A stretch of DNA of 49,399 nucleotides from IMG/VR virus record IMGVR_UViG_3300041402_000217, positions 1-49,399 of that record, one strand, 5' to 3'. Under the pieces are notes generated by a model that made no database searches, was not told the DNA's origin, and saw only the letters and a program-made list of their open reading frames with translations. Of the stretch, positions 5,289 through 39,962 are shown piece after piece. The DNA comes from a virus. The translations under genes were made by a program, and so were the position numbers. How positions within the stretch are numbered: position 1 is the stretch's first letter; each line of letters starts with the position of its first letter.

Positions 5289-5332
5289 TTTCTTTAGCCA
5301 TAATTTCTTTTTCCAGTAAACACATTTTCCCG

Positions 5333-9511: not shown

Positions 9512-9514
9512 ATT

Positions 9515-10960
9515 TCAGTCCTTTCTGAACCAAAAACATCCGCACCCGTTGTTCTGCTCGGCTACCAGTTCTTTTGCATCTCTGATAAGATTGCCCGGCG
9601 TCACATCGGGTATTAACATAAACTCAACCAATTTGAGTTCTTCAAAATAACTCATAATCTGTTCATAGCTGTAAATTCGGTGGATATTGAATATAACTCT
9701 CGGCTTGCCAACCGGGACTACAAATAATAAATCGCCGGCAAGAACCCGTTTAAGTTCCGATATTGCTTTTAAGTCTCCGTCCGGGTCGAGAGGGTCGCCG
9801 TACCTGCCTAACCCTATATGCTCGACAACGTGCATACAGGAAAGAGAGGGAATCGAATTATCAGCAAACGGTAACTGTGCCAGGTCTGCAAAGTTCGTCC
9901 GCAGGCCCGACAGCGGAATATCAAGAGGGCGATAGTCATAAGAATCTATCGGGATAAACGCCGAGACTAACGTGTTGAAATAAAGCAATGAAGAGATGTC
10001 AACGTGCTTTTCGGGCGGACAGGCGGCCAGAATACGAGCGGCCCAGCCGGTGTGCATGATGTAAGGCTTGTCGCCTTTCTGTTCGGGTTCTTCCAGGCAA
10101 CGCGGGCTTCGCCTAATCTCAAACCTATTGTCTTCTTTAGACATTTGTACGAACGTCTGGTATTCCGCCACACATTTTCTTGTCCCAAATAAATAGTAAT
10201 GCTTGATTCCGTGCGGGAACTCATACGGCATTTCCAAACAGTCAAACTCGTAACTTGTGTTTTCGTGAACGAACTTTTCAAAATAATCATAGTTGTCAAA
10301 ATCATTGTGTGTTGCCTGGAATATTATGAGTACATACTTGGTGTTTATCCCGCCCAGTATCCTTTTCCGCATCTCATAAGAAACTTCCGAGATGGACCAT
10401 GTAGCGATAAAAAGGCTTTCGTCGCGTGTCATTTGTTTTTTGAAATCAACCTCATCCCGCAAATATGTAATCCGGCCATTGGTCATTTCGCCGAGATAAT
10501 ATTGCTGAAGTTGAAGTACCGCAGGCAGGTCCATAATCGTATACTCGCCGGTAAAGCCGAAATTGTGTATAAGTCTGCACATGCAGCCGTAACCGCCCCC
10601 GAACTCATAAATCTTGTTGAGATTTTCTATTTTACAGTCCGTATTTGAAAGAAAACGCGCCAGGAGTTCAGCCTGCATTATTAAATTACCACTGCTCTGC
10701 GGATACAATTCGTACGGCTCCGGATTCCCTACGGGGGATTCGACTATGGCTTTTTCCCATTTCTCCCAGTCCGGCAGGCTTTGGAGATACTCCAGGGGCG
10801 AGAGCGACCTCAACTTGGTAAACATTGTCTGTCTAATCACGTCCCATTCCGTAAAGTGGGAAATGTCGCCTGTGAGTATTTGGTCGGCTATGGCATTGTT
10901 GTAATGCCCCCAGTCCGACTCTACGCACGGCCCTGTTGCTATATCATCTATCGTCTGCAT
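9515..10960 (-). CDS. Fusion of a sugar O-methyltransferase-like domain and a DUF268-like class I SAM methyltransferase domain
   Basis: Start moved to ATG 10960 (MQTIDDIA..., parallel to the paralog start MQKIELD). The N-terminal half has YEFGGGYGCMCRL (motif I). The C-terminal half has CMHVVEHIGLGRYGDPLDPDGD...FNIHRIY. Confidence 0.65.
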   Translation of the reverse strand: MQTIDDIATGPCVESDWGHYNNAIADQILTGDISHFTEWDVIRQTMFTKLRSLSPLEYLQSLPDWEKWEKAIVESPVGNPEPYELYPQSSGNLIMQAELLARFLSNTDCKIENLNKIYEFGGGYGCMCRLIHNFGFTGEYTIMDLPAVLQLQQYYLGEMTNGRITYLRDEVDFKKQMTRDESLFIATWSISEVSYEMRKRILGGINTKYVLIIFQATHNDFDNYDYFEKFVHENTSYEFDCLEMPYEFPHGIKHYYLFGTRKCVAEYQTFVQMSKEDNRFEIRRSPRCLEEPEQKGDKPYIMHTGWAARILAACPPEKHVDISSLLYFNTLVSAFIPIDSYDYRPLDIPLSGLRTNFADLAQLPFADNSIPSLSCMHVVEHIGLGRYGDPLDPDGDLKAISELKRVLAGDLLFVVPVGKPRVIFNIHRIYSYEQIMSYFEELKLVEFMLIPDVTPGNLIRDAKELVAEQNNGCGCFWFRKD

Positions 10961-11769
10961 CTTAAGGCCTCTTCTGAAACTTCCCCGAACAAATAGAAAT
11001 GATCGGGACGATTCGTTATTTTGTTGGGAAGGGCGATAGCGGTCCATCTATAGTCAGGAATCTGCTGCGTCGTCTGACAAAAATAGGCCAGGTTGTCAAG
11101 CTCTTCGTGACTTCCCTGAAAAGCAATGAGGATGTAGTTCGCTTTATCGAGGACTGCCTGTAAAATCGCATCTCTCAACGCATAAGACACTTCTGATAAA
11201 GACCATGTTGCTATAAAAAGACTGCCGCCTTCTATTTGTTCCATAAATTCCTTACTATCCAATAAATACACAAGCTGTCCCTGTTTTACCGTTCTCCCAA
11301 GATACCACTTTTGAAGGACTTGTACGGCTGGTAAATCCATGATCGTGTACTTGCCTGAAAAACCGAGATTGTGTATAAGCCGGCACATACAACCATAGCC
11401 GCCACCGAACTCATAAATTGCTTTCAGGTCTGTCAACTTACAACTCGTTCTTGAAAGGAACTGGGAAATATGGTTCGCTTGATGTATCATGTGGTCGCTA
11501 CTCAAAGGATACCACTGGTTAGGTGTGGGATTCCCCTCCGGCACTTCCTTGATAGCTTCTTTCCATTTGTCCCAGTCGGGCAGGTTCCGGAGATATTCAA
11601 AAGCACCCTGACTGTCACCCCCCTGGCTATCGTTGTAGTGCATTGTATTACTTACTATCGGCCATTTTGTAAAGTTGTTAATGTCATCTTCTTCAATATG
11701 TTTCGCTATCTTGTTGTTGTACCCTATCCAATCGTACCGAACACAAGTGTCGAGTTCTATTTTCTGCAT
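10948..11769 (-). CDS. Sugar O-methyltransferase-like class I SAM methyltransferase (paralog of the N-terminal half of 9515-10960)
   Basis: 273 aa. Shares LPDWDKWKEAI...YEFGGGYGCMCRLIHNLGF.G.YTIMDLPAV with the adjacent gene. GGGAGG lies upstream of the ATG. Confidence 0.65.
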   Translation of the reverse strand: MQKIELDTCVRYDWIGYNNKIAKHIEEDDINNFTKWPIVSNTMHYNDSQGGDSQGAFEYLRNLPDWDKWKEAIKEVPEGNPTPNQWYPLSSDHMIHQANHISQFLSRTSCKLTDLKAIYEFGGGYGCMCRLIHNLGFSGKYTIMDLPAVQVLQKWYLGRTVKQGQLVYLLDSKEFMEQIEGGSLFIATWSLSEVSYALRDAILQAVLDKANYILIAFQGSHEELDNLAYFCQTTQQIPDYRWTAIALPNKITNRPDHFYLFGEVSEEALRCRR

Positions 11770-13043
11770 AGCAAAGCCTCCCTCTGTAATTCACCTATCC
11801 GCTCGGCGCTCAGCCCTGATGTCTCGATGACTATATCAGCTTCGCCGTTTTTCTTTTTGTACGCACCGTAACCGTTTGAATCAATTTGCTTCCATGTAAG
11901 ACCCTCTTTCGGTTTGATGTCGTATTCCCCGCCGTTGCGGGCAGCATCGCCTATCGCCGTACCCTTATAGGGGAAGAATACCGTACAGTCGAAGTCAAAC
12001 TTATCAGGATATTTCTCTCTGTATTTCCTGATGAAAATGTTTGTCTGACGTGCGGTTCTTTCCGTCTCGCCCGGTAGCCCGATTATGAAGAACGCTTTGA
12101 CTCTCATGCCAGCAGCGATAACTGTATCTATGAAATAGCCCATCTGAGGAACCGTTGTCTTTTTATTGACAGTATCGAGTATCTTCTGGCTGGCGCTCTC
12201 GGCGCCAAACCCTATCTCAACACAACCGGACTCCGCCAAAAGTTCTGCCATTTTTAATGTCATTGTCGCGGCGTGGCCGAAACACCGAAAGGCCATAGAG
12301 TGCCTTTTAAGCACTTCTAAGTAGGGTTTCGCGCGTTCGATATTTAGTGCAAAAAGGTCGTCAAAAATCATCACACCCTCATACCCCAACTCTTTGATGC
12401 TCTTAATCTCTGCCTCGAAGTGTGCTACAGAAAACCACTTGGGTTTAGTTCCCCCGCTTTCACAGAATCCGCACCGCATGGGACAACCACGCGAATTGAC
12501 CATAGTTGTAGTCTTTGCCCCGTTCAAAGTATAATTGTACCTGTCAGCATACCGATGAGGAATAGGATAGCTGTTCATCTCATCCTCGGATAGTGTGTCG
12601 CAGTACATCCTCTGTTCCGGTGTGGACTTCGGCGACAGGCGGGAACATCCACCTGTAAGTAGTTCCTCCCATATCCGCTCACCGTCACCGCAGACGATAA
12701 TATCAAAGGGGTGCTTCATGCACTCGTCGAGATAGTACGTTGCGTGTGGCCCGCCTATCATTACTGTTGTATGCGGATAATACTTTTTAATATCCTCGCA
12801 TAGCCGATAAGCCTGTGGGCCTTGCGGTGTCATGCAGGAAATAGCGACAACATCATATATCCCTACCGCGCAATGGACAAGGTTGTTGTCAGTATAATCA
12901 ACATCGGCGCCTACCCTCTCCGCTACCGCCTGTAGATACTTAACACCCAGGTACGGGAATACAAACTGGTCGTCCAGAAACGGACTATCCAGCGTGGCAA
13001 GCAATATCCGCTTGCCTGATAAATTGTCTGTATTTTTCTTCAT
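11757..13043 (-). CDS. B12-binding (class B-like) radical SAM enzyme
   Basis: 428 aa. N-terminal cobalamin-binding-like segment (VVAISCMTPQGPQ...VMIGGPHATYY), followed by RGCPMRCGFCESG, which is a CxxxCxxC radical SAM cluster motif. Confidence 0.75.
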   Translation of the reverse strand: MKKNTDNLSGKRILLATLDSPFLDDQFVFPYLGVKYLQAVAERVGADVDYTDNNLVHCAVGIYDVVAISCMTPQGPQAYRLCEDIKKYYPHTTVMIGGPHATYYLDECMKHPFDIIVCGDGERIWEELLTGGCSRLSPKSTPEQRMYCDTLSEDEMNSYPIPHRYADRYNYTLNGAKTTTMVNSRGCPMRCGFCESGGTKPKWFSVAHFEAEIKSIKELGYEGVMIFDDLFALNIERAKPYLEVLKRHSMAFRCFGHAATMTLKMAELLAESGCVEIGFGAESASQKILDTVNKKTTVPQMGYFIDTVIAAGMRVKAFFIIGLPGETERTARQTNIFIRKYREKYPDKFDFDCTVFFPYKGTAIGDAARNGGEYDIKPKEGLTWKQIDSNGYGAYKKKNGEADIVIETSGLSAERIGELQREALLCRK

Positions 13044-13758
13044 TTTCCATTACACATTTAGGAGCATCTAACGGTTCTGTCGTAAACGTCATTCCGCGCT
13101 CAAATATATCCTCTCCGGCTGCTACGCGCTCTTGCAGCCTGTTCACGTCCTTGAAGTAGTCCGTATCGTATTCGGCGTGGGCAAAAGCCTCTAACTTCTT
13201 TGGTATCTGGTCAGGCGGGACAAGGTAAGAAAAGTGCCAACCGGCGTCTGGTATATAGTCTTTATACTCGCCAAGCCGTAACTTGTCCGGCGTAACGAGA
13301 TCCTTGTACTGGCAAAAAGCGGGGTACATCCATTCCTCGTTCGCCCTGCAGTTAAAGGAATAATAAAACAGCTTCATTTGCAGCCTGGTGGGATGATGGA
13401 AATGTTTCATCAGCGGCACTACCCCACGTCTCGGTATCTCATCGAGGTCGGAAACTATGATAATGTCGTCCGCCATAGCCCCCCTCAGTCCGTACAGGAT
13501 AGCGTTTCGCTGGTTCCTGTCGTTCTCAAACCTGTCAGGTCCCATCGGAGCAGAGCAGGCAATGTGGGTTATCTTGTCCTTGAACGGACCGAATATCTCA
13601 TTGTCCTTGACCTCGTCATAGTAAAGCCGTTTTGGTTTGCCTGAGTGGGTATGAGTCGCCTCTACCAGTACAAACCTGTCAACTACCGGGGACAGTTCTT
13701 TCAGGCGAATCTCCAGTAGCATCAACTCATCGAAAAACGGGAAGCAGTCGAAAATCAT
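12985..13758 (-). CDS. Glycosyltransferase family 17-like (GnT-III-like)
   Basis: 257 aa. MIFDCFPFFDELMLLEIRLKEL..VDRFVLVEA..THSGKPK ... DDIIIVSDLDEIP ... GWHFSYL is the GT17 signature as I recall it. Confidence 0.75.
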   Translation of the reverse strand: MIFDCFPFFDELMLLEIRLKELSPVVDRFVLVEATHTHSGKPKRLYYDEVKDNEIFGPFKDKITHIACSAPMGPDRFENDRNQRNAILYGLRGAMADDIIIVSDLDEIPRRGVVPLMKHFHHPTRLQMKLFYYSFNCRANEEWMYPAFCQYKDLVTPDKLRLGEYKDYIPDAGWHFSYLVPPDQIPKKLEAFAHAEYDTDYFKDVNRLQERVAAGEDIFERGMTFTTEPLDAPKCVMENEEKYRQFIRQADIACHAG

Positions 13759-15083
13759 TTTATCGCCTCCACTCTCAGGCAGGGGGTGTCTTTGGCGTGA
13801 TAGTCCGTTGCCTCAGTAAACTTAATATATTTGAACCCGGCCCTATCGAGTATGTACCTCAGCCGGTCCTCACTCGCGCCCCATCGGTGGATGTCTGTAT
13901 CGTCGTCGTTGCGGTAACTTCCATAAATGCTTATCAGGAGTTCCTCTTTCCTCGACTCGTCGGCCTCTAAATACTCCCTCATTACGGCGTCAAGGTCGGG
14001 CATTTCAATTACCAGGTTGCCTTCAGGCTTTAAGACACGTCGCCATTCCTCTAAGACGGCTATTAACGACGCATACTTCATACCGTAATCCGGGTTTACC
14101 GCAGCGTGCAGACATACCGGGATATGTTCGAGAACATGATAGCACTCGATTGTATCGACAGTGTTGTCTTGATATGGAAGTTGCCTTATGTCGCAGATTT
14201 TGTCTGTTACCGGCGTCTTCTTGCAATCGATGTTTACGTAGCCCGGAAGATATTGTGTACCGCAGCCAAGATGAAGCCTGACGGCTTCCTTTTCATGGTG
14301 AGGAAAGGGCGAAATCGGGTCGGCGTCCCACGGGTCGAACTCTACAAGTAGTTTCTTCTGGTAATCCGGCCTCCAACATTTCTGTTCTTTTTCGCTTAAC
14401 ATCGCAGCCGTAAATGAAAATGTACTGTTAGATGCTAACAAAACGTCGCAATGCTGCAGGATGTAGTGGTCGAGGAACATGCTCAAAAGCTCCGTATTCG
14501 GCTTCAACATCATCGGCTTATATTTCTCGAAGTCCGGGAAAACGGCCTCTGGGTCGTCACTTGCGAGAAAGAGGGTTGGGTTGTTAAACCTGTCCCAGTT
14601 CTTTTCCAGCCAGTCGAGATACCACTCGTTCGGAGCTACCCGGTTCGGAGGTCTGCTGTAATCACCCCTGCGTATGTGAATACCTATCAATGGCCCTGTT
14701 AATTTATCAAAAGTCTTGCTCACCCTGTCTCGTAAGGCTTGTATCGGGGTAAATAACTCCCTGAAGAAAGTTTTGTGCGGAGCATATACAGAAGTGTGAT
14801 ATTGGAAATAACCCTTTATATTGCAGTCTTCCAGTAATTCGCCGTTGCTCCATATACACTCCTGACTTGAACCGAAATCCTTTTGCGCCCGGCCCAGCCC
14901 GGAAACAGGAAAGTCTTTGCACCCCTCAAACAGTTCCCGCCCTATCCATCTTTCAGGTATCTCTACTTTCAGATGATATTTCTCAGCGTATATCTTTAAC
15001 GCCGCGTATTGGAATAACTCGTTACCATACGAACGATTCCCGACTGTTTCGTAATCAGCCAATGTTGTCATTGATACAAACAT
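13755..15083 (-). CDS. Fusion of a GT11-like (alpha-1,2-fucosyltransferase-type) domain and a class I SAM methyltransferase domain
   Basis: The track start at 15098 is TTG; the real ATG is at 15083 with AAGGAG 6 nt upstream. GIHIRRGDY motif and ...LASNSTFSFTAAML (GT11). C-terminal LHLGCG...YHVLEHIP...VLKPEGNLVIE (Methyltransf_11-like). Confidence 0.65.
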   Translation of the reverse strand: MFVSMTTLADYETVGNRSYGNELFQYAALKIYAEKYHLKVEIPERWIGRELFEGCKDFPVSGLGRAQKDFGSSQECIWSNGELLEDCNIKGYFQYHTSVYAPHKTFFRELFTPIQALRDRVSKTFDKLTGPLIGIHIRRGDYSRPPNRVAPNEWYLDWLEKNWDRFNNPTLFLASDDPEAVFPDFEKYKPMMLKPNTELLSMFLDHYILQHCDVLLASNSTFSFTAAMLSEKEQKCWRPDYQKKLLVEFDPWDADPISPFPHHEKEAVRLHLGCGTQYLPGYVNIDCKKTPVTDKICDIRQLPYQDNTVDTIECYHVLEHIPVCLHAAVNPDYGMKYASLIAVLEEWRRVLKPEGNLVIEMPDLDAVMREYLEADESRKEELLISIYGSYRNDDDTDIHRWGASEDRLRYILDRAGFKYIKFTEATDYHAKDTPCLRVEAIK

Positions 15084-15099
15084 AATATCTCCTTTCAAT

Positions 15100-15152
15100 C
15101 CTTTTCGGTTAAAAGGGGTCGGGGTAGAAAGGATTGAAATCCAACCTACCCC
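15100..15152 (-). terminator. Tandem stem-loops directly after the capsid/cement genes (possible attenuating terminator or RNA-stability element)
   Basis: Minus strand GGGGTAG..GGATTTCAATCC..CTACCCC (15121-15152) followed by CCTTTTAACCGAAAAGG (15100-16). Lies in the 68-nt gap between the cement stop and the next SD. Confidence 0.4.
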
Positions 15153-15166
15153 TCGCCCTTATTTAC

Positions 15167-15616
15167 TTACGTACCTACTTTAGTCAAAGGTGTAGCACCA
15201 CTAACCCAGGCATTGAACTCTGTTGCCCATGCGGTTTCCGCATTATGCCGCCAGTACATCAGCCGCAGATAACGACTGTGAGAGTTGGGGATTGCAACTT
15301 GCAATATCACCCCATCACTGTCGCTTGCCGCTTGTATCTCCGGAATACGCATTCTTTTCTCTAACAAGAATGTGTCCGTAGCCGCAAAAGCTGCGCCTGT
15401 GCTGCCCTGCAACTTGAAGCTGCACCATTCCGTTGCACCAATAAAGGTGTAAGGAGTGGCGATTGTTATGTTCAGGTAAAGCGGAGTGCCGGAACCGATG
15501 TCTAAATTCTCGGCTCCGAGGTCGATGATATTGGTGGAAAACGTCTGAGTTGCCGCGGCCGTTGCTCCGACCGTCTGAGTAGAACTAAAGATAAGTTTTG
15601 CGTCTCTTATACTCAT
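15167..15616 (-). CDS. Capsid cement/decoration protein (Bordetella phage BPP-1 Bbp16-like)
   Basis: 149 aa. MSIRDAKLIFSSTQTVGATAAATQTFSTNIIDLG...GSGTPLYL pattern. ATGA overlap with the capsid gene immediately upstream. Confidence 0.6.
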   Translation of the reverse strand: MSIRDAKLIFSSTQTVGATAAATQTFSTNIIDLGAENLDIGSGTPLYLNITIATPYTFIGATEWCSFKLQGSTGAAFAATDTFLLEKRMRIPEIQAASDSDGVILQVAIPNSHSRYLRLMYWRHNAETAWATEFNAWVSGATPLTKVGT

Positions 15617-16647
15617 GTTAAGGGTACCTCCTTACTTCCAATAGCATCCACTCGCCTTACGGGAACACCCCTGAACAGGGTTGTCGGCCTACCGCTCCAG
15701 TCACCAATGGTGTAAAGCACGTTCGTCCTGTCGACAGCGTGAATATCCATCTGCGTCTTGGTGTTTTCGTTGCAATAGATTCTGGCACCTGCACCCTTAT
15801 AAGGCAGGGCGTTAAGCGCCTCAATCAACTTGTGATGGATAGTTGCCGTGCTGCTACCGAATGACATGGTTGCAGCTATCTCTGTACGGAGGTTGGCAAT
15901 TCGCCTGATACAACGGTCGTCTCGGACTACAAGACCCGGATGGACCTTGAAGTGACTTACCAACGCCTGCATTAAAGCAGGTGCAGCGTAAGTGCCGCTT
16001 GCCTCGATGGTCTGTTCGCCGAGATTCTCATGGACTATACCCATAGTGGGTGAACCTTTCGGGTAGACCATGTGAACCTTATCCGCACCCCACTGAACGA
16101 TATAGATACTCGTATCAGCAGTGGTAGACGCTGCGCCACCGTCATAGACGTTAAATAGATTTATATCGTCTAATCGAGCAGGAAAACCGTTGAACCTTGC
16201 GGGGTATGTCTCGGCGTCGCCGTAAATAGTCGTCACGTCGCCTGAATTGTCCGCAGTGAACATGACCTTCGACAGTTCCTTGGCAAGTCCTTGTACAAAG
16301 GCTTTGTCCTCACCAGAACGAAACTGGTTGGTATTGCCGGACAGTTCTGCCAGGAGTTTATCAACACGGCTGTACGCCTCAAGGATACCAATACCCTCGG
16401 TGATTTGATTGGTACTGGATGCTTCAGGAGCAACACCTTGATTGATTGCACGCCATGTTCCGGTCGGCTCACTGGTCCGCTGGGTCGTAATATGACTCAT
16501 CGGCTGGTTTGCCTGTATCCAGATGGCGTCTTCCATCCATTCTTCAGTTGTCAGAAGAACTTCAACAATCGCTTGGAGGGCACCGAAATTGGTCCGCTTG
16601 GCTAACTGTTCAAGAGTAAGCTGGTCTCTGGTATTAAATTCAGTCAT
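15613..16647 (-). CDS. Major capsid protein (HK97-fold family)
   Basis: 344 aa. Position after the scaffold gene. Pattern ...W.QAN.P..H.TTQRTS.PTGTWRAINQGV...S...Q.TE......AYS.VDK matches the podovirus capsid family by eye. GGAG precedes the ATG. Confidence 0.8.
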   Translation of the reverse strand: MTEFNTRDQLTLEQLAKRTNFGALQAIVEVLLTTEEWMEDAIWIQANQPMSHITTQRTSEPTGTWRAINQGVAPEASSTNQITEGIGILEAYSRVDKLLAELSGNTNQFRSGEDKAFVQGLAKELSKVMFTADNSGDVTTIYGDAETYPARFNGFPARLDDINLFNVYDGGAASTTADTSIYIVQWGADKVHMVYPKGSPTMGIVHENLGEQTIEASGTYAAPALMQALVSHFKVHPGLVVRDDRCIRRIANLRTEIAATMSFGSSTATIHHKLIEALNALPYKGAGARIYCNENTKTQMDIHAVDRTNVLYTIGDWSGRPTTLFRGVPVRRVDAIGSKEVPLT

Positions 16648-16727
16648 AGCTTATTCTCCAATAAAAAAGCGAGATTTATCGGAGAACTCCCCGCTACCGT
16701 AGCGGACTCTCCTGCAAGTTACGCCTG

Positions 16728-17756
16728 TTAGACGACCTGACTTACAGGTTTACACTGGACCCTGCCGCTTCCACCGACCTGACCTCGGCTTTCACTGGTA
16801 GAGCTACCCAGGTTATCTTTCTCGCTGCCTACCCTTTCGGAACAGCGAAAATAATCTATTGTTCTTTTTAATCCTTCACGTAATAATACTTTTGGATTCC
16901 AACCCAACTTCTGCGCTAAAGTTATATCCGGGCATCTTCGCTTGGGGTCGTCTTCCGGCAAATCCTTAAATACTATGTTTAGCTTTGAGTTTATCATATC
17001 TTTGATGATTTTTGCCAGCGCGTATATATGTCTTTCGTCTGGATTGCCCAAGTTGACTGGATAATGGTCCCCCGAATCCATCAACGTAATAAGCCCATCA
17101 ACCATATCATCAACATAGCAGAAACTCCGGGTCTGTTGGCCGTCTCCGAAAATGATAAAATCCTGACCTCTTAGAGCCTGCATAATAAAGTTACTGACCA
17201 CTCTGCCATCGTCCACAGCCATACGCGGGCCGTAAGTATTGAATATCCGGGCTATTCTTATATCGACTCCATACTCGCGATGATAGTCCGTAAAGAGAGT
17301 CTCCGCGCACCGCTTACCCTCGTCATAACACGACCTCGGACCGATAGGATTGACATTGCCCCAGTATTCCTCACCTTGCGGGTGCTCTAACGGATCGCCG
17401 TAAACCTCCGATGTTGACGCCTGGAGTATCCTGGCGCCTACCCGTTTGGCCAAACCAAGCATATTGATAGCCCCGATAACCGCTGTCTTCGTGGTCTGAA
17501 CGGGGTCAACCTGATACCAGAGCGGTGAGGCCGGACACGCTAAATTGTATATCTCATCGACCTGGACGTACAGGGGGAGTGTAATATCATGCCTGATGAA
17601 TTCAAAACGGGGGTGTTTGAGTAAATGATGGATATTGCTCCTACTGCCGCTAAAGCAGTTATCTACGCATATAACCTCATTGCCCCATGCAATCAGCCTA
17701 TCGCACAAGTGCGACCCTATGAATCCTGCACCGCCTGTTACCAAAATTGTTTTCAT
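16728..17756 (-). CDS. UDP-glucuronate decarboxylase / UDP-xylose synthase-type SDR (UXS-like)
   Basis: 342 aa. [12 protein letters not shown] Rossmann motif, [21 protein letters not shown] (YxxxK) and [12 protein letters not shown] are classic UXS strings. About 38 extra C-terminal residues. ATGA overlap with the scaffold stop. Confidence 0.8.
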
Positions 17757-18511
17757 TTGCCAGTATTTCCTACTACTTTTGAATAATCCAACTCGCCCGG
17801 CTCGGTGGTCTTACCTGGTGGTTCTCCGCCAGACGGTGCAACATCGCCCTTGACCAGCTTCCACGCTTCCATAAAGAACTCAATAACCGCAGGGTGAGAA
17901 TCCAAACCGTTGGCTTTCAGTACCTCCACGAAAGACTGGTTGACTACATCGTCGCCCGGCAAGTTGTAGAACCGATTAGCCATGTCAACACCTGCATCGT
18001 ACTGGGCGCCCAGCTTGGCCTTCAACTCGTTGGTCTTGGTCTCTACCGCCTGGTCGTTGGCTGTCTTTAATGCGGTTACTGCATCATCGTTCGCCTTGAA
18101 TAAGGCGTCAATAACCATCTTCGCCTGGCCCTCATAGACGGTCTTTGAAATGCCGTTGTCGTGAGCATACTTGGACATAGCTGTAATAAGTTTCTCGTTA
18201 TACTCCTTGCCATCTTCCCTGGCTATCTCATAGCCCTCGACCGTCGGAGGACAGCCCTGCTTGGTGTAATGGGCGCGTTTCTGCTCTGGCGTAGCGTCAG
18301 CGGCTAAAGGCTGTATCGCCGTACCCAGCATCTTGTCCTTGTTGAGATAGCTCTTTACTACCGACCCAATGTTCTTGTGGTCGGCTAAATCGCCTTGTTT
18401 CGGCTTTCCGGCATCGTCGTTCTCAAACGTACCTGCCGGCAGACTGTCCATCCAGCCATCTGTAAAAGACCCATCTTCGCCTAAAACTGCTACTGCTTCT
18501 GTCTCAGCCAT
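17753..18511 (-). CDS. Scaffolding protein
   Basis: 252 aa, acidic and helical, no enzymatic motifs. Lies in the portal-to-capsid interval as in T7-like order. Confidence 0.6.
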
Positions 18512-19568
18512 CGTTCAACCCTTTCTGTTTTACTAAGCCACAAATATTGATTATCTGCTCGTCCGTCAGATTCACCGACGACGGCAGCCATAAACCCCGA
18601 TGGCTGAATCTCTTAGATACAGGATAACTCTTGCCATCAGCGTATATCTTCTGTTCGTTAATAGGCTTATATACCAGTCTCGAACCAACCCCATTCTCCT
18701 TAAGATGCTCTTGAACTACCGTAGGGTTGTCGAGATAAATGTCCACAAACCAAGGCGTTGACTCGTTTGAGCCGTGGATCATCTCAAATACATCGCTTAA
18801 CTGTGATTCATACACTTGGTAGATATGCCTTTTCCGCCCTGAAGCCCAAGGCAGTTTCTTCATCTGCTCTATACCAATAACCGCCTGTAAGTCTGTGAAC
18901 TTGAAATTGTAACCCAAAGTATTGTGTATATCACTGCCGTCTCTGCCCCAGTCCTTTAACTTCCTTATTTTGTCGTACAACCCCTCATCGTCCGTTACCA
19001 AGGCCCCGCCCTGACCGGTGGTAACTATCTTGGGCGAACTGAATGAAAATACGCCTATATCGCCGAAAGTGCCTAAATGCCTACCATTGTGGAATGAGCC
19101 TAATGACTGGCAGGCGTCTTCAATGAGAGTCAAGTTGTTTGCTGTGCAGAAATCCTGAAACCTTGCCATATCCAAAGCACGGCCATTAAGCGAAACATTT
19201 ATGATTGCTCTTGTTTTTTCTGATAATGACCATACACAATCTAAATCCATACACAGCGATTTAGCCTCTATATCCACCAGAACCGGCGTTGCGCCTACCA
19301 TTCTAACGGCGTTGGGCGTGGCTATCATCGTGTAATTGGGCACGAGAACCTCATCGCCGTATCCGATACCACAGGCCCACAGAGCTACCGCAAGGGCAAC
19401 CGTGCCGCTTGGTACGACTACGCAATACTTACTGCCGACATATTCAGCTATCTTGCACTCGAACTCCGTAGTCCTGTCGTATTCAGTCAACCACGCGCCT
19501 GACTGTAAGTAATTGTTCATGGCCTCGACTTCGTATCCGTCTATGTTTGGCTCTATCTGGTTTATCAT
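18504..19568 (-). CDS. DegT/DnrJ/EryC1/StrS-family PLP-dependent sugar aminotransferase
   Basis: Start placed at ATG 19568 (MINQIEPNIDGYE...), 1 nt after the upstream stop; the track start is 19649. Motifs VPSGTVAL..AL, DEVLVPNYT and FSFSSPKIVTTGQGGALVT (PLP lysine). Confidence 0.8.
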   Translation of the reverse strand: MINQIEPNIDGYEVEAMNNYLQSGAWLTEYDRTTEFECKIAEYVGSKYCVVVPSGTVALAVALWACGIGYGDEVLVPNYTMIATPNAVRMVGATPVLVDIEAKSLCMDLDCVWSLSEKTRAIINVSLNGRALDMARFQDFCTANNLTLIEDACQSLGSFHNGRHLGTFGDIGVFSFSSPKIVTTGQGGALVTDDEGLYDKIRKLKDWGRDGSDIHNTLGYNFKFTDLQAVIGIEQMKKLPWASGRKRHIYQVYESQLSDVFEMIHGSNESTPWFVDIYLDNPTVVQEHLKENGVGSRLVYKPINEQKIYADGKSYPVSKRFSHRGLWLPSSVNLTDEQIINICGLVKQKGLNDG

Positions 19569-19569
19569 A

Positions 19570-21306
19570 TCAATACCTGCCTCTTGTGCGGGCAAAACCG
19601 GTATCCTTTTTCGTACCATATCTATGACGAGCGGATTTTGTGCCTGCATAGTATTCTCTTTTTATTTCGCTTGCCGACAATACCCCTGAATATATCCTTA
19701 CGTCGCTTATACTGCCTGTAACAAGCTGGACCGGGCCACCATCACTGTCTGGTTTTCCCCCAATAGTTACGATGTCAACCGTGGTTGGAAAATCAGTAGC
19801 CGCCGTATCCGTTGTACTATTGGCCGAAAAAACACCATTTACATATATATCTCTATTTGCGTCCGAGTGCCAGATTCCTACTACGTGAACCCATTCGTTG
19901 TAAATCGCTGAAATCGCAGAAACAGTGTCAACGGGTACAGCTGCGCCGCCTTTCATTCTCATTATCGGGACACCGTTTTTAAGGTCTAATCCCATCCATC
20001 GGAGATTAATCCCCGTAACACCATCAAGGGCAATCATTAATAATGTGGAGGTTTGGGAAGAAGGTATTTTATACCACGCAGAAAAGGTGCACGGAAAACT
20101 CAACAACGGCACAGCGGCGTCATCTATATAATCGCCCGTTCCGTCTAATGTTAAGCCATGACCGACAGGTGCTAATACTGAAACTACATCCTCGCTGTTT
20201 GTTCCGTGATAAGCGTTGCCGCTGCTGTCAATAATGGCCCCCGCGCCAGCCGCCGTTCCATCCGCCTCGTCTAATTTCCAATGAGCGACAAGGGGTGTAG
20301 CCGTTTTGTAGCTTCTCTGGTGGCCGTAACCTGTTAAAGTTACCAACCCCTCCTGTCCGTTAATTGTTGTATGGGTCGGTGATGTTATCTCTAAGACCGC
20401 ATGAGAGAATCGGCCCGTATCAGTTTCGTCTTCACCCCACAAATCCCCTCGTAAGTTGATGTACACAATTCCATTTACGATTTCAGTTCTATCGTCAACG
20501 TGAATATGACCCTGAATGACTACGGGTTTTATCGTCTGGGCTTCCATTGCAATTACAGCAGCCGCGCCGCCGCCAGTTGCCCCTTCAGCGCGGGTTGTGT
20601 ATAATGGCTGATGGGTTACTACTATTACCGGCGTCCCAGCCCCCTCTGCGACAGCCAAGTGGCTTTCAAACCAAGCCTCTTGTGTCGATGCCCCGCCCGA
20701 ATCATCGCCGGTAGTCTCCATATCTATAACTGCACCCGGATTGCATAAAACAAGTATCATAAAGCCGCTATCGTCAAAACGATAAGCACAGTAAGTGTCG
20801 TTGGCGACATCAGGGTTAAGATTGTCCGGCCACCACATATCAGCGTCTCTGCCCGCTGGTATAATATCAGTAACCCCGCTCGAAAGACCCGTAAACGCAG
20901 CGGCAACATCCGTCCCAGTCATAGTAGCGCCGCCTATATCCCAATGGCCGAAACAATACAGCATATCCGCATTAAGACCGTTACTCGATGCGTGAGCGCC
21001 ATCTATCCAACTGACAAGTTCTGCGTAATTCTGGGCGACAGTGCCATCGGTAGCGTCGTTTATCATATCGCCACCGTGAATTACCAAATCGACTACGTCT
21101 GTGTTGAACTGGTCAATGGCCTTGCCCATTGAATTGTCTTGGAAACCAGGTAATCGTTTTCCGGGTTTGTCGCCATACGGGTCAGCCGCAGTACCCTCTG
21201 TAAGACGAATATGAGTATCATACCATAAGCCTACTTTAATAGTTGCCGAAGGCCAACAGACCGAACACGATAACAACAACAGAAATAAGATTATAAACTT
21301 TCGCAT
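19570..21306 (-). CDS. Exported (lipoprotein-type signal) calcineurin-like metallophosphoesterase fused to a C-terminal LamG domain
   Basis: 578 aa. MRKFIILFLLLLSCSV has a lipobox-like LLSC. Phosphoesterase motifs YDTHI, HGGDMIND, GHWD, VVTHQP and QGHIHVDD. The C-terminus has LVAHWKLDE...GVLSASEIKREY (LamG). Confidence 0.7.
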   Translation of the reverse strand: MRKFIILFLLLLSCSVCWPSATIKVGLWYDTHIRLTEGTAADPYGDKPGKRLPGFQDNSMGKAIDQFNTDVVDLVIHGGDMINDATDGTVAQNYAELVSWIDGAHASSNGLNADMLYCFGHWDIGGATMTGTDVAAAFTGLSSGVTDIIPAGRDADMWWPDNLNPDVANDTYCAYRFDDSGFMILVLCNPGAVIDMETTGDDSGGASTQEAWFESHLAVAEGAGTPVIVVTHQPLYTTRAEGATGGGAAAVIAMEAQTIKPVVIQGHIHVDDRTEIVNGIVYINLRGDLWGEDETDTGRFSHAVLEITSPTHTTINGQEGLVTLTGYGHQRSYKTATPLVAHWKLDEADGTAAGAGAIIDSSGNAYHGTNSEDVVSVLAPVGHGLTLDGTGDYIDDAAVPLLSFPCTFSAWYKIPSSQTSTLLMIALDGVTGINLRWMGLDLKNGVPIMRMKGGAAVPVDTVSAISAIYNEWVHVVGIWHSDANRDIYVNGVFSANSTTDTAATDFPTTVDIVTIGGKPDSDGGPVQLVTGSISDVRIYSGVLSASEIKREYYAGTKSARHRYGTKKDTGFARTRGRY

Positions 21307-21314
21307 AGCTTCCC

Positions 21315-21914
21315 TTAATAACCTGAAACCTCAACAATGCAATCCTCATCGAATGTGTCCCATCCGTGGAACAGGAACCTGTTATAACCAAGTGTATCAT
21401 CAATATAAAACAGGGCCATCGTATCATCGTCGTCGGAAATAGCCGAAACACCGCCGCGCCACGTTTCGTTAGAGATGTTTATAGTTTGCGCAAAATGATT
21501 CGTAGCATTGGTATAGTTCTGCAACCCACAAATTACATCCAGCGTACATACCCGCCTCATCTCGTTAATACCCCGACACGCCCAGACATCTATATCCACA
21601 TCTTCGTCGTTGGTAGTTAAGACAAATCGTACCTCGAGAGCGTTCATGCCCGGCAATGTTTCCACATATACGGAATTATCCAGGGCAGCGGCAGAAGCAA
21701 AGTCTCTTTCGGCTACACCTAATGTGTCGTCAGCGTCGCCAGCGGTTGCGTCTATCGTGCCAATCGGAAGCCACGGCAAGTGGGCTGAAGACAGAATTGT
21801 TTCGTTAGTCGGCAGATACTTCGCTCTGTCGATTATGTCCGCTCTCATAAGATTAGCGCCAACAAACAGAATGAGCAATAAGGCGATAGTCATTACACTG
21901 TGTTTCGATGTCAT
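21315..21914 (-). CDS. Signal-anchored/secreted protein of unknown function
   Basis: 199 aa. N-terminal hydrophobic segment VMTIALLLILFVGANLM. AGGAGA lies 6 nt upstream of the ATG. Confidence 0.6.
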   Translation of the reverse strand: MTSKHSVMTIALLLILFVGANLMRADIIDRAKYLPTNETILSSAHLPWLPIGTIDATAGDADDTLGVAERDFASAAALDNSVYVETLPGMNALEVRFVLTTNDEDVDIDVWACRGINEMRRVCTLDVICGLQNYTNATNHFAQTINISNETWRGGVSAISDDDDTMALFYIDDTLGYNRFLFHGWDTFDEDCIVEVSGY

Positions 21915-21924
21915 TTTGATTCTC

Positions 21925-22329
21925 CTAAATTAGTACCTTGTCCTTTTCTACCGTAATATACGGCCCGTTCTTGCACTCTATTATTTTGGTGTCGGGCTGT
22001 CTTATCTTGAAACCATGCGCGCCATTGACCATGACTATAAAATCGCCGCTACTAAGCACCTCAGTACGAAACAGCCGATTATTCTCGTCATACAAGTTCA
22101 CTTCCAGTAACCCCGATAAGACGATATTGCACTCTTGCGTCAGATTGTTTGGCCGTTCGTTCTCAATATGGCGGTGAGGCTTGCATTTGTTGTCCTCCTG
22201 ATACCAGAATGTGCCTACTTGCAAGAACATCTCATCCGGTGTGATGAAGTTAAGCCCTTTCTGCCAGCCTGCTGCCCGGAGTATAATCGCGTAAAGCACG
22301 CCGTCTTTCCTTATTTCCTCTGCCACCAT
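21925..22329 (-). CDS. Cupin-fold protein, possibly a nucleotide-sugar ketoisomerase/epimerase
   Basis: The cupin core (KPHRHIENE...ECNIVLSGLLEVNLYD) lies after Met54 of the track ORF (21925-22488, TTG start). The shorter start is chosen because the upstream 93-aa ORF is coupled on both sides. The start remains uncertain. Confidence 0.5.
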   Translation of the reverse strand: MVAEEIRKDGVLYAIILRAAGWQKGLNFITPDEMFLQVGTFWYQEDNKCKPHRHIENERPNNLTQECNIVLSGLLEVNLYDENNRLFRTEVLSSGDFIVMVNGAHGFKIRQPDTKIIECKNGPYITVEKDKVLI

Positions 22330-22592
22330 TGCCTCCGTTTCTGCGGGATAATACCCAGCATATTCTGTATTATTATCTGGTAATTGCCAGGCTTCCAGAA
22401 CCCGCTTTTCTCTAATATCTTCTTGGCGTGGATATTGAGTACGTTCTGTTCCGCCGGGGTCAAGGCCTTTGAAGTGCATGTATCCCAAAAGCCTAAAGCG
22501 CCCAATATGTCCACTAATACCCGCGCACCGTCACCAGAAGTAAAGGTGTTGCGATAAGCCTGGTTGCGCTCTGTGTCATTATTGAATATCAT
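22311..22592 (-). CDS. Small head-module protein (hypothetical)
   Basis: 93 aa. ATGA overlap with the upstream ORF. The segment AYRNTFTSGDGARVLVDILGALGF resembles small proteins found next to portal genes in some podoviruses (from memory only). Confidence 0.45.
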   Translation of the reverse strand: MIFNNDTERNQAYRNTFTSGDGARVLVDILGALGFWDTCTSKALTPAEQNVLNIHAKKILEKSGFWKPGNYQIIIQNMLGIIPQKRRQWWQRK

Positions 22593-22834: not shown

Positions 22835-24549
22835 CCACCCCCTGTCAATGCAGCCACCGGACTGCCCGATTCTATCTCTTTGCCTAAGCCCGGAACTACC
22901 TTAGCGGCCTCTAACGCCATTTCAGCCGTTCGCCTTTCCTGTTCCGCCTGTGCCCTTATTTCCTGTATTTCTTTAACCTCGTCATCAGTCCGCATAAGTT
23001 TGACCGGCATACCGTGAGCGTCAAATATCTCCTCAACAGTCTCCTCAACCTTCAGGCGGTCAAGGGCTGTTACCGGCTGCTGGGCCGCTATCTGTAATTG
23101 AACCAACGGCTCTAAGGCTGCTATGCCCTGATTGATACCCTGTGTCTTGAATAACCGTTTCTGGGCCTGTGCCAGAGGTCCTACGTAATCAACGTCAATC
23201 AATCGAGCCTTGCCGCCCGTGCCGGTCTGTTCGTCCCGGACCATCTCGTCAAGGACTATCTGGGGTGGGGGTGGTATGCGCCCCGCGGCCATCTCAATAT
23301 CGAATACCTGGGCGTGAATTATATCCAAGACAGTATTGAGCGTGCCGAGGTCAGGCCCCATGGCTGCCGCCTTTTCGCCTTGAATCTCCATGACCTGTGG
23401 GACAGTAAGGGTCCGGCCCTCCATCGCGGCCTGGGTAAGTGCCATAAAGAAACTCACCTTGAAATTGTCCATTACCCCCTGGCGAACCCGGTCCATCATC
23501 TCTACACTGAAACTCTTATTACTGCCAGTGTCAATCCGGCGTATTTCGTCCCTGTCGTCGTTATAATAGTTCTGGCCGCCTGGGTTGAGGTCAGCTTCGC
23601 CACGCTTGCCCTCCGGTACCATCCAAAGACCATCAGCTTCCATCTGGGCCGATCCCAGCATCGAACTAGCCATCGAATTGGCGGTATAAACCGAGATAAG
23701 GGCTTCACCTATAAGACCCCTGCCGTAAGGTAGATTAGACGGCTTCTTGACACGCCAGACGGGCGGGAACCTGTCCAAACTGCTGGTCCGTATCAAGTTA
23801 GTGCCATCGACCTGGACCATGTATGTATTGAACTTGCGCCTGCCCTGTACTAAACTACCCCTGACATAGTCCGGGTTCGGCCATACCGCCCAGATAAACT
23901 CCGTCTTTTCCGCTATATTCGTGTTGTTACTAATCGCGGTCCGGACACCCTCAGAGAGCTTCTTTATCTCCGTATCGGTAAAAGCACTCTTAACCTGGTG
24001 GATGGTCCATTTATACTTGCGGTGCATTAAGTTGGCATAACCAAACTTATCGTCCGCTAACCATACCTCGCGAGGGTGAGGGACCATGAACCCTATCTTG
24101 CCCTCGCCCTCTATGTCCTCAATGAACATCGTTGCCAAACCTATGCCGTCACCATCCCGTAAGAAACTGCCGATTACAGAAGCATCATAGAAGTTCGACC
24201 GACTGTAAGCATAGTATATACCCTCGTCACACTCCTGTAGCCAGCCCTGGACCTCGTCTAATTCCCGCAGTTCCTTATCAGCCGACCGAGACATGAACCA
24301 CGTTATAGCCGGTGATACGTGATAGCCACTAATGCCATCAGCACGGATATTGAGGGCTTTTATACAACTGTCGTCGAAAACCTGGTATTCCTTGTCCCTG
24401 CCGGTCTGAGCTATGCCCTCCCAATCGTTGCGGGCGGGATAACCTAAAGCAGTAGATTCCTTCCATAAATCCACAAACGGGTCCTTGACCTGCTCTAACT
24501 CCGTCTGGCGATTAACTACCTGCTGCTCTATTGTTTGCTCGTTAGCCAT
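22831..24549 (-). CDS. Portal (head-to-tail connector) protein
   Basis: 572 aa. Lies immediately downstream of the large terminase. Size and N-terminal pattern are typical of podovirus connectors. Confidence 0.8.
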   Translation of the reverse strand: MANEQTIEQQVVNRQTELEQVKDPFVDLWKESTALGYPARNDWEGIAQTGRDKEYQVFDDSCIKALNIRADGISGYHVSPAITWFMSRSADKELRELDEVQGWLQECDEGIYYAYSRSNFYDASVIGSFLRDGDGIGLATMFIEDIEGEGKIGFMVPHPREVWLADDKFGYANLMHRKYKWTIHQVKSAFTDTEIKKLSEGVRTAISNNTNIAEKTEFIWAVWPNPDYVRGSLVQGRRKFNTYMVQVDGTNLIRTSSLDRFPPVWRVKKPSNLPYGRGLIGEALISVYTANSMASSMLGSAQMEADGLWMVPEGKRGEADLNPGGQNYYNDDRDEIRRIDTGSNKSFSVEMMDRVRQGVMDNFKVSFFMALTQAAMEGRTLTVPQVMEIQGEKAAAMGPDLGTLNTVLDIIHAQVFDIEMAAGRIPPPPQIVLDEMVRDEQTGTGGKARLIDVDYVGPLAQAQKRLFKTQGINQGIAALEPLVQLQIAAQQPVTALDRLKVEETVEEIFDAHGMPVKLMRTDDEVKEIQEIRAQAEQERRTAEMALEAAKVVPGLGKEIESGSPVAALTGGG

Positions 24550-24758
24550 TACACCGTGGCTCCCAACTTCTGCTTCAATTCACGCCTTCTTACCGTAGCG
24601 GATTGCAACTGGCCACGACCGGCTATTATGGATTGCCCGCGACTTCGACCACGCAAACGCCCGCTCTCGTCTTTGCCCGCCGCGCCTGTATCTATCGTCT
24701 TAACCGGTGGCGGTAAAGGCGGTGGCCTTCTTGATTTAGGTGAACCTCCAAGTGGCAT
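24549..24758 (-). CDS. Small basic Pro/Arg-rich protein (hypothetical)
   Basis: 69 aa. Starts 3 nt after the terL stop, and its TAA overlaps the portal ATG (TAATG). Low-complexity composition. Confidence 0.4.
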   Translation of the reverse strand: MPLGGSPKSRRPPPLPPPVKTIDTGAAGKDESGRLRGRSRGQSIIAGRGQLQSATVRRRELKQKLGATV

Positions 24759-26482: not shown

Positions 26483-26523
26483 AAAAAAAGGGGCGCATCG
26501 AGTATTAAACCCAACGCGCCCCT
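26483..26523 (-). terminator. Intrinsic terminator immediately upstream of terS
   Basis: Minus strand AGGGGCGC-(19 nt)-GCGCCCCT followed by TTTTTTT. Perfect 8-bp GC-rich stem. Lies 20 nt before the terS ATG. Confidence 0.65.
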
Positions 26524-27618: not shown

Positions 27619-28121
27619 ATATTCTCACCAATCTGGTGTATTATTGCAGGACAGGCCAGCCGACAATCCGGTCTGCCCAAAGTGCCTTTTTAGCACCCGA
27701 CTTAATGGGATAAACCCATTTAATCACTATTCGTATGTAACATAGCCCTGACGGGATGAGGCTTGTATATCATGTCCCGCGTCGATGTTTGAGCAGTGAT
27801 GTGCGAACGCCTTTGTTTATCCCATTTAGGTAGGCTTGTAACTGGGTATGACACTTTGTTACATTGTCGGTCTGCCCGCTTCGTTCCATCATATTACTCG
27901 GTCTCAATATTTCTAACTATTATTTGCTTACAATGCGGTCGGCAGGATTTTAACCCGCTTGCTACTCACACCTGTACATGCTTTCGCTATGTTACACCTG
28001 GTCCGTGGCCCCTGTACAGCAGGATGCGCGTTCGATGTTAGCGTTTCACACACGCCGCAACCGCATAACTGCGACCCCCGAAAGTGCCGCAGGCTCAGTG
28101 GTTAAACCGCCGAGGATGTAA

Positions 28122-28196
28122 TGGGGCAGACTGGAATCGAACCAGCGTAGCCTCCTGATTACAAAACAGGTGCTCTCCCTGCTGAGCTACCGCCCC
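28122..28196 (-). tRNA. tRNA-Thr (anticodon UGU), non-standard length
   Basis: Hand-folded reverse complement GGGGCGG TA GCTC AGCAGGGA GAGC A CCTGT TTTGTAA TCAGG AGGCTAC GCTGG TTCGATT CCAGT CTGCCCC A. T-loop TTCGATT. About 7 nt in the variable region. No encoded CCA. Confidence 0.7.
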
Positions 28197-28443
28197 ACTC
28201 TTAGCTTTTTTCTCAATATCTCATGCTTCTGCCCTTTCAATTAAACGCGCGTTCTTTTGATTAGAACAGTTTCGTAACGTCCAATTCTAACCTATTACGT
28301 TTCAAAGTCAAGATAAATCTGAGAATTATTTCAATTTTTTCCCGGCATTTGGGCTAAGTCCCTGAAAGAGCGGAAGTTAGCATACGAAAAAATATTTAAG
28401 TTTCCTGCGCGGATCGCCGATGTTTCAAGAGAAAGGAGCAACC

Positions 28444-39853: not shown

Positions 39854-39881
39854 TTACTCCCGTATTAAGTTAATAAAACAC

Positions 39882-39953
39882 TAACCCTGCCCGGAATCGA
39901 ACCGAGGCCAACGGACTGAAAATCCGTTATGCTAGCCGCTACACCACAGGGCC
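39882..39953 (-). tRNA. tRNA-Glu (anticodon UUC)
   Basis: Hand-folded reverse complement GGCCCTG TG GTGT AGCGGCTA GCAT A ACGGA TTTTCAG TCCGT TGGC CTCGG TTCGATT CCGGG CAGGGTT A. Two G-U pairs at the acceptor end. Confidence 0.65.
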
Positions 39954-39962
39954 AACCGTACC

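Follow-up and report, generated by a model that had tools for sequence, protein, structure and literature searches.

Two adjoining genes on the minus strand of a phage genome (IMG/VR record IMGVR_UViG_3300041402_000217, positions 1 to 49,399; this whole stretch is called the window) encode a 578-amino-acid (aa) fusion of a metallophosphoesterase (MPE) with a lectin-like LamG domain, hereafter MPE-LamG, and a 199-aa beta-sandwich protein of an uncharacterised phage family, hereafter PX. Both proteins are probably exported, because the two partners repeatedly carry leaders, which differ greatly in sequence and are present or absent together at 15 loci. The pair is a mobile two-gene accessory cassette (moron) and not a feature of the head module, because it is found in unrelated backbones: an epsilon15/BPP-1-like head module, a P22-portal tail module and a Mu-like early region. 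The explanation we prefer, to which we give about an even chance, is that of an exported, mobile, glycan-targeted phosphoesterase with its partner, acting on the host envelope and not as parts of the virion.

A sequence-only reading of the same DNA had taken both proteins for exported ones, a claim that finds support in the comparative evidence of leader recurrence and co-variation. What it had observed is genuine and no product of chance. The two open reading frames (ORFs) of 578 and 199 aa that it listed are present, as are the Shine-Dalgarno sites and the short intergenic gaps of 10 nt (21915-24) before PX and 8 nt (21307-14) between PX and MPE-LamG. Features of the pair are as follows, with their basis in parentheses.

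21922..21926, minus strand: Shine-Dalgarno AGGAG of PX, 7 nt ahead of its ATG and sharing nucleotides with the stop codon of the cupin gene (sequence read)
21315..21914, minus strand: PX gene, 199 aa, beta-sandwich protein of an uncharacterised phage family with N-terminal leader (ORF, homologues, AlphaFold2 [AF2] model)
21840..21914, minus strand: predicted PX leader, residues 1-25, MTSKHSVMTIALLLILFVGANLMRA (n-region with K4, h-region of 14 residues)
21309..21316, minus strand: Shine-Dalgarno-like AAGGGAAG, ahead of the ATG of MPE-LamG and sharing nucleotides with the stop codon of PX (sequence read)
19570..21306, minus strand: MPE-LamG gene, 578 aa, leader, metallophosphoesterase, Laminin_G_3 and basic tail (ORF, Pfam, alignment)
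21250..21306, minus strand: predicted MPE-LamG leader, residues 1-19, MRKFIILFLLLLSCSVCWP (hydrophobicity, conservation in homologues)
20302..21243, minus strand: metallophosphoesterase domain, residues 22-335 (Pfam PF00149, invariant columns)
19660..20145, minus strand: Laminin_G_3 (concanavalin-A-like lectin) domain, residues 388-549 (Pfam)
19573..19644, minus strand: conserved basic C-terminal tail, residues 555-578, ending …RHRYGTKKDTGFARTRGRY (alignment)

Leaders on both partners

Each N-terminus has Lys or Arg and then 13-15 hydrophobic residues, too few for a typical transmembrane helix. The Kyte-Doolittle maxima over 10 residues are 3.28 for MPE-LamG and 3.26 for PX, values that no other large protein of the window reaches at its N-terminus; the sequence-only reading had noted an N-terminal signal anchor in the 199-aa protein.

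The partners agree in their leaders from locus to locus (loci of other phages are given by their labels, L001 and so on). Where an MPE or PX gene bears a leader, the adjacent partner bears one as well in all seven loci (window, L005, L001, L026, L027, L028, L006); where it is leaderless, neither has one in all eight (L004, L003, L010, L110, L008, L025, L021, L024). A Fisher test on the 6-vs-3 MPE subset gives p = 0.012, the loci not all being phylogenetically independent. Leader-like ORFs account for 20 of the 203 ORFs of at least 100 aa in these loci, and 17 of the 20 lie inside MPE/PX clusters. MPE-LamG bears its leader in six loci, and the small gene next to it does so in each, with MTSKHSVMTIALLLILFVGA… in the window, MKRLMQVLMLLAVIGLCLLPVKA… in L005, MRKNVTLLIVLCVIFVGVLFDQHVTA… in L001 and L026, MVKKLGYIGLVIVLTLVVGA… in L027, and MNKMKKQIALFLFLVIGMPLMA… in L028; these sequences are unrelated to the leader of the adjoining MPE-LamG. 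Membership of PX for the 184-aa neighbour in L027 is unsupported (hhalign probability 0.4%). Further leader-bearing genes are a third one in L026 (pectate-lyase fold, 3800-4504), following MPE-LamG and PX, and one of 388 aa in L006, the one PX-only locus with a leader, where it follows PX. Among the leaderless loci, L004 has in-frame stops just upstream of both starts, and in the other seven the MPE or PX gene and its neighbour both start without a leader. The joint gain or loss fits partners that need the same compartment, and argues that the leaders are real targeting signals. As a separate observation, L025 holds leader-bearing genes of 159 and 639 aa (8594-9073 and 9057-10976) just upstream of a tail-tubular-A homologue.

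Shorter proteins were given by the automatic gene caller: MPE-LamG of 519 aa from M60 and PX of 192 aa from M8. The long forms are the right ones, because homologues align from residue 1, the motif D30-x-H32 lies upstream of the short start, and no in-frame start codon is found from the leader of MPE-LamG to D30. The M60 start, which would delete this invariant DxH, was rejected.

In the PX family the leader is missing from 16 of 19 members, and where present it differs in sequence from phage to phage, as expected of real signal peptides. Possible cleavage sites in the window protein are VGA↓N or MRA↓D; the signal-peptidase I c-region is good in PX (VGA↓N) and in relatives (VKA↓Q, VTA↓D, AAA↓F, GFS↓S). 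Set against the type I Sec pattern (positively charged n-region, h-region of 7-15 hydrophobic residues, small residues at -3/-1), MPE-LamG and PX both agree in the n- and h-regions. The MPE-LamG leader is kept in four of six close homologues; the other two are leaderless, with stop codons upstream. Over its 17 codons it shows 82-88% nucleotide identity among four phages (window 21250-21306, minus strand; L005 756-806; L001 10001-10051; L026 1479-1532), against 54-64% for the rest of the gene, which is the reverse of the normal behaviour of a signal peptide. This may reflect a recombination junction, a need for specific recognition or a 5' RNA element.

The string LLLLSC, on which the sequence-only reading had called MPE-LamG lipoprotein-type, is present, with Cys at position 14 and Leu at -2; the name did not hold. 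Compared with the family consensus LLLCSVCWP, in which a lipobox is missing, the window copy has two inserted residues, and these give rise to the string; in most leader-bearing homologues the reading is LLLC or LILC, and LLSC is found in the window copy and one distant relative (P0042) only. With a lipobox defined as [LVI][ASTVI][GAS]C, Cys at about 15-35 and conservation among orthologues, a signal peptidase II substrate was rejected, the lipobox not being conserved among orthologues. Because most leader-bearing homologues read LLLC, the MPE-LamG leader is classed, from the alignment, as a generic Sec-type leader and not as a lipoprotein signature.

Enzyme, partner and mobility

The fusion described by the sequence-only reading is confirmed, both domains of the 578-aa protein lying above the Pfam cut-offs: Metallophos at residues 53-270 with 27.9 bits (gathering cut-off 21.5), and Laminin_G_3 with E 6.9e-20 and 72.2 bits (cut-off 27.6). 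The relatives P0049, P0058 and P0033 score 33-47 bits for Metallophos. The putative metal ligands D30, H32, D80, H121, H232, H267 and H269 are invariant in nine relatives; motif I (D30-T-H32), motif IV (H232) and motif V (G266-H267-I-H269) are so in 7 and in 9 aligned relatives. To this extent the motif set reported earlier as full is present; the remaining two motifs are non-canonical. Motif II is GDMIND (GDxxxD), without the Arg or the second Asp of canonical GDxxDR, and motif III is GHWD, where canonical GNH(D/E) would have the metal-binding Asn at the position of His and the catalytic His at that of Trp. Across the MPE family motif III reads G[HN][WH][DE], and a few members retain GNHD/E. 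Because the seven ligand-type residues stay invariant, a dinuclear metal site is plausible.

Against PDB sequences, the family profile finds zebrafish ADPRibase-Mn (2nxf) at 9e-8 and purple acid phosphatases at about 1e-3 over residues 169-277; the LamG domain finds 4qvs at 6e-9. Foldseek with the low-confidence model of the 578-aa protein (mean predicted local distance difference test score, pLDDT, 58) matched the N-terminal half to Listeria Lmo2642 (2xmo; E 3e-8, TM 0.32/0.42) and the C-terminal half to the folds of PTX3 (pentraxin), laminin LG5, BoNT Hc and the carbohydrate-binding module of NanA (sialidase) at about 1e-8; the C-terminal nucleotidase domain of UshA/CpdB is absent. On these comparisons the MPE domain is assigned to a divergent branch of the calcineurin-like metallophosphoesterase superfamily. 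No NCBIfam model and no PADLOC profile matched MPE-LamG (best PADLOC E 0.008, 13.5 bits), and no description of a phage MPE-LamG protein was found in the literature. Two further features of the family were noted: similar R-x-R-[YF] C-terminal endings occur in distant MPE members, and P0040, P0047 and P0052 share a conserved Thr/Asp/Gly-rich insert of about 70 aa within the MPE domain (…TDGSSGT.TDNDGTTITVDDLTGG.DDQ…).

The nearest solved relatives are phosphodiesterases of nucleotide diphosphates or cyclic nucleotides and purple acid phosphatases, the C-terminal tail is basic and could bind nucleic acid, and the genes behave like a mobile moron; all this would suit an exported exclusion protein or nuclease (Mre11/SbcD or cyclic-nucleotide-phosphodiesterase class) directed at incoming DNA or signalling nucleotides, or else a phosphate-scavenging phosphatase acting as an auxiliary metabolic gene. 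We regard these readings as improbable. They have little specific support: the PADLOC result given above is negative, the LamG lectin module and the glycan-enzyme neighbours indicate carbohydrate over DNA, expression in a late operon fits phosphate acquisition poorly, and the defining features of purple acid phosphatase and UshA are absent.

PX has 17 homologues with E 1e-32 to 1e-70. Its AF2 model (mean pLDDT 82) shows an N-terminal helix, corresponding to the leader and of low pLDDT, followed by a beta-sandwich. No match to PX was found in Pfam, PHROG, NCBIfam or PADLOC; a fold search of the PDB gave no significant match (best, prophage protein YomS, weak E 4.5e-3), and one of BFVD gave uncharacterised phage proteins only, none annotated.

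Relatives of the pair are rare. With tblastn, neither protein had a relative in 50,697 isolated phage genomes. A HMMER search with the MPE domain over 1.84 billion representatives gave 50 matches at E<=1e-3 and 35 at E<=1e-10, and a profile search with an MPE-only alignment in a word-indexed protein database added one new member (P0028). MPE-domain patterns had no match in IMG/VR; prokaryotes, scanned at one genome for each species, gave matches to the LamG domain only, mostly in metagenome-assembled genomes of Planctomycetota, Verrucomicrobiota and Saccharibacteria, and neither a full-length MPE-LamG nor a host assignment; a metagenome scan gave three loci, one a duplicate of L001. About half of the MPE family are MPE+LamG proteins of 550-630 aa and some thirteen consist of the MPE alone, at about 320-346 aa; in a few, other modules are appended, read from the sequence as C-terminal lectin-like, an N-terminal extra domain or a dockerin-like motif, where Pfam reports Metallophos only.

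MPE-LamG is the only gene common to the window and the other phages that carry MPE-LamG. L001 (= L002 and L109) is a phage whose portal is of P22 type; there the gene has large genes of the tail region on either side, and a PX member (hmmsearch E 3e-21) and a Gp53-like fibre gene come after it; the short contigs L026 and L027 have the same gene order. L005 and L004 have PX then MPE-LamG, as in the window. In the Mu-like phage L028 (DDE transposase, GemA, Gam) MPE-LamG comes after the early region, following Gam. The 64.8-kb viral contig L010 has tandem leaderless MPE-LamG paralogues (1831-3588 and 3581-5371) with motif III GHHD. PX alone is commoner than the pair. It lies directly upstream of terL in L023, a relative of the window phage (terL 54% identical), and likewise in L020; it adjoins DegT, radical SAM, glycosyltransferase (GT) or methyltransferase (MT) genes in L021, L024, L006 and the P0019 contig; and it precedes a beta-propeller-LamG protein in L008 and a beta-helix protein in L025. 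Across phages, PX keeps company with a variable glycan-type enzyme.

The sequence-only reading had placed the pair between portal and scaffold inside the head module. That location is correct for the window and particular to it; as a meaningful position it is unsupported, given the tail module of L001, the Mu-like L028 and the terL neighbourhood in L023. GC content and GC at third codon positions (GC3) of the pair are slightly below those of the neighbours (GC3 0.44 for MPE, 0.42 for the tail fibre), too close to be informative on a recent foreign origin. No sigma-70-type promoter or terminator signal above chance was seen inside the pair.

Proposed role and the late operon

In the mechanism we propose, the MPE-LamG/PX cassette would be transcribed with the late operon, and both products, by way of Sec-type leaders, would leave the cytoplasm for the periplasm or cell surface. 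MPE-LamG would be a phosphoesterase with a binuclear metal site, joined to a lectin-like LamG module, and may cleave a phosphoester or phosphodiester bond in or beside an envelope carbohydrate polymer; candidate substrates are a phosphodiester-linked capsule, O-antigen or teichoic-like polymer, or a sugar-nucleotide or lipid-linked intermediate. PX would be its co-exported partner, one that in many phages is found with varying enzymes of glycan type. As a benefit, remodelling or stripping of the surface polymer or receptor late in infection would be likeliest; it may aid release or cut re-adsorption and superinfection. Without leaders, a pair could do its work only once the cell has lysed, or else inside the cytoplasm or on the virion. 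The host is probably diderm, as suggested only by our reading of small leader- or lipobox-bearing ORFs in L023 and the window together with the holin-like gene, none of which matched a spanin family.

Several findings weigh against this proposal. In the window MPE the c-region (P-S-A↓T) is weak, positions -3/-1 (W/P-S/P-A) making poor signal-peptidase I sites. About two-thirds of the MPE family and most PX members are leaderless, so that export is not essential to the function of the fold. Motif III lacks the canonical Asn and His, which leaves catalytic competence only putative, and the AF2 model of the 578-aa protein is poor, its core alone reaching pLDDT 70-89. In L003, L010 and L110 large tail-like genes surround the leaderless members, a setting compatible with association to the virion. 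The LamG domain is similar to LamG inserts in the tail protein of the window phage itself, and its region has a match in phrog_8510, whose annotation is virion structural protein. Both substrate and benefit are purely inferred.

The resemblances of the LamG domain also bear on a different explanation, in which the two are virion-associated accessory proteins: MPE-LamG a glycan-binding enzyme attached to tail or head, PX an adaptor or decoration, and the hydrophobic N-termini unused for export or serving as assembly or tethering segments. The pair, or its single genes, mostly lie inside structural modules, PX adjoins beta-helix or LamG proteins typical of tail spikes, and the best PDB fold match of PX, weak as it is, is to a prophage protein; with so many leaderless members, this explanation keeps appreciable weight for the leaderless forms. 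As a whole we consider it unlikely. Virions of tailed phages assemble in the cytoplasm, from which a Sec-type leader would remove the protein, and the leaders co-vary on both partners, so that virion incorporation of the leader-bearing forms seems unlikely. There is no N-terminal virion-anchor domain, the MPE fold beginning 2-3 residues past the leader or initiator Met. A conserved place in a structural module, as a test for a virion structural protein, was not found: the genes occur in head and tail modules, in the early region of the Mu-like L028 and upstream of terL, and even among the relatives of the window phage (L023) the position changes.

A more specific form of the exported-enzyme proposal is rather doubtful. 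It would make the cassette a receptor- or matrix-destroying secretion module, in which a LamG-targeted metallophosphodiesterase and PX cleave, before lysis, phosphodiester-linked glycans on the surface of the infected cell and in its surroundings, the leaderless forms acting at lysis, and in which PX serves as general partner of swappable secreted glycan enzymes (MPE-LamG, beta-propeller-LamG, beta-helix). Cleavage by such a module would free progeny and block re-adsorption or superinfection, a chemistry not described for phages.

If export is true, the family is a phage-specific enzyme family without cultured representative, and unrelated phages trade a two-gene unit that is switched between exported and non-exported on both genes at once; nature would thereby offer a clean experiment in the redirection of accessory enzymes to the envelope by phages, and a lectin-tethered phosphodiesterase would be a candidate new activity for remodelling of the cell surface by phages. 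Two points matter for annotation: both leaders were cut off by gene callers, and a position in the head module is not evidence for a structural role.

The window is a complete phage genome of about 49.27 kb, circularly closed, because an exact 127-bp direct repeat stands at both ends (1-127 and 49273-49399). The minus strand carries every gene. The phage is assigned by its protein families to the epsilon15/BPP-1-type podoviruses, because of the T7-type head-tail connector (portal; PF12236, 22831-24549 by Pfam, upstream of the pair), the GP7-type major capsid protein (PF20911), the Bbp16 cement protein, tail proteins matching phrog_394 and phrog_376, and capsid relatives at 34-40% identity in Pseudomonas, Burkholderia, Escherichia (phiV10) and environmental phages. 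A scaffold-like gene (17753-18511) lies downstream of the pair. The late operon runs from terS to terL, portal, head and tail genes and wraps round the contig ends to a holin-like gene. Interleaved with its head and tail genes, at 8141-22488 (minus strand), are about 12 genes of glycan metabolism, among them the following.

21925-22488, minus strand: WbuC-type cupin, upstream of PX
18504-19568, minus strand: DegT (LegC-PseC-like) aminotransferase, downstream of MPE-LamG
16728-17756, minus strand: SDR 4,6-dehydratase-like enzyme
13755-15098, minus strand: GT11-methyltransferase fusion
12985-13758, minus strand: GT17
11757-13043, minus strand: B12-radical SAM enzyme; best NCBIfam match PhpK-type P-methyltransferase, far under cut-off
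10948-11769 and 9515-11047, minus strand: two NanM-like sugar O-methyltransferases
8141-9511, minus strand: GT2

These genes could serve glycosylation of the virion or conversion of the host surface, and the set is possibly of greater interest than the two exported proteins. The cupin and DegT flank the pair and share the portal-scaffold interval with it; the pair therefore lies in a glycan-gene insertion and not among the head genes proper. This setting is what would suggest a periplasmic step of the phage's own glycan pathway, a role also raised by the sequence-only reading, in which MPE-LamG processes intermediates linked to undecaprenyl diphosphate or nucleotides, or trims phosphate-linked substituents of the glycan made by the sugar genes. 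The dehydratase, the three glycosyltransferases, the B12-radical SAM enzyme and the O-methyltransferases of the operon would fit it, as would the PX-only relatives that likewise stand beside DegT, radical SAM, GT and MT genes. We think it distinctly unlikely all the same. No sugar gene adjoins MPE-LamG and its partner in L001, L026, L027 or L028, which weakens the link to the neighbouring sugar genes; in L028 the only such genes are methyltransferase genes about 6 kb off on the other strand. No flippase, polymerase or membrane glycosyltransferase was noticed in the window, where no systematic transmembrane search was made, and the GT11, GT17 and GT2 proteins are without a leader-like N-terminus.

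Other features of the window are these. The longest DegT ORF overlaps the 3' end of MPE-LamG by 80 nt (19570-19649); since its Pfam match begins only at residue 36, the true start is probably the ATG at 19568, 1 nt past the MPE stop codon. The tail protein at 855-5288 (minus strand) matches phrog_376 end to end and has 1477 aa against the 712 positions of the profile, because Laminin_G_3 domains are inserted; these are 24% identical to the LamG domain of the MPE fusion. A strong terminator-like hairpin (26489-26523, minus strand; 15-bp stem, 9 GC pairs, T-run) lies directly upstream of the terS-like gene and is probably the border of the early/middle and late operons. A Pro/Arg/Gly-rich ORF of 69 aa (24549-24758, minus strand), at most a candidate gene, occupies the terL-portal gap; tRNA-Thr(TGT) and tRNA-Glu(TTC) are at 28121-28197 and 39881-39954 (minus strand), and an HNH endonuclease gene at 40335-40964 (minus strand).

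Comparison with known systems

With the PF00149 superfamily the window MPE shares the motif order DxH … GD … G-x-H/W … H … GHxH and six of the seven usual metal-ligand positions as written, the seventh being His. It differs in motif III (GHWD) and in a motif II without Arg or second Asp, and it falls in a separate small clade that is LamG-fused and phage-encoded. From purple acid phosphatase it departs in both the Tyr ligand of GDxxY and GNH(D/E), which are missing (GDMIND, GHWD).

UshA and CpdB are periplasmic MPE nucleotidases of enterobacteria, in which a Sec leader is followed directly by the MPE domain, and they hydrolyse nucleotide-linked phosphoesters. The window protein resembles them in the predicted Sec leader placed directly before the MPE domain. 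Unlike them, it has no 5'-nucleotidase C-terminal substrate-binding domain (no Pfam or NCBIfam match) and carries LamG instead; no sequence relationship beyond the superfamily is detectable.

Phage proteins that are exported include Cor/Llp/Bor-type lipoproteins and signal-peptide or signal-arrest-release (SAR) endolysins. The T4 antiholin RI has a cleavable signal peptide and uses the host transport system (PMC8385771), and the secreted lytic enzyme Tgl of Kayvirus is exported by the host transport system (PMC7150955). The proposed likeness of the window pair to these proteins lies in the N-terminal leaders, in action on the envelope and not as virion parts, and in their often being mobile and non-essential. 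No MPE and no LamG protein is among them, however, nor is a pair with jointly gained or lost leaders described for any of them, and the window pair differs in being expressed inside the structural operon.

Free phage depolymerases and receptor-destroying enzymes are alike in joining a glycan-binding module to a predicted hydrolytic domain beside genes for tail fibres or beta-helix proteins, and extracellular action would suit both secreted and lysis-released forms. To our knowledge, phage depolymerases are glycosidases, lyases or esterases, mostly virion-attached and of beta-helix fold; a metallophosphoesterase domain with Sec export is not the described pattern, and the activity of the window protein is a predicted one. 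The pair is a rare addition to the known accessory genes of phages for exported, envelope-active proteins.

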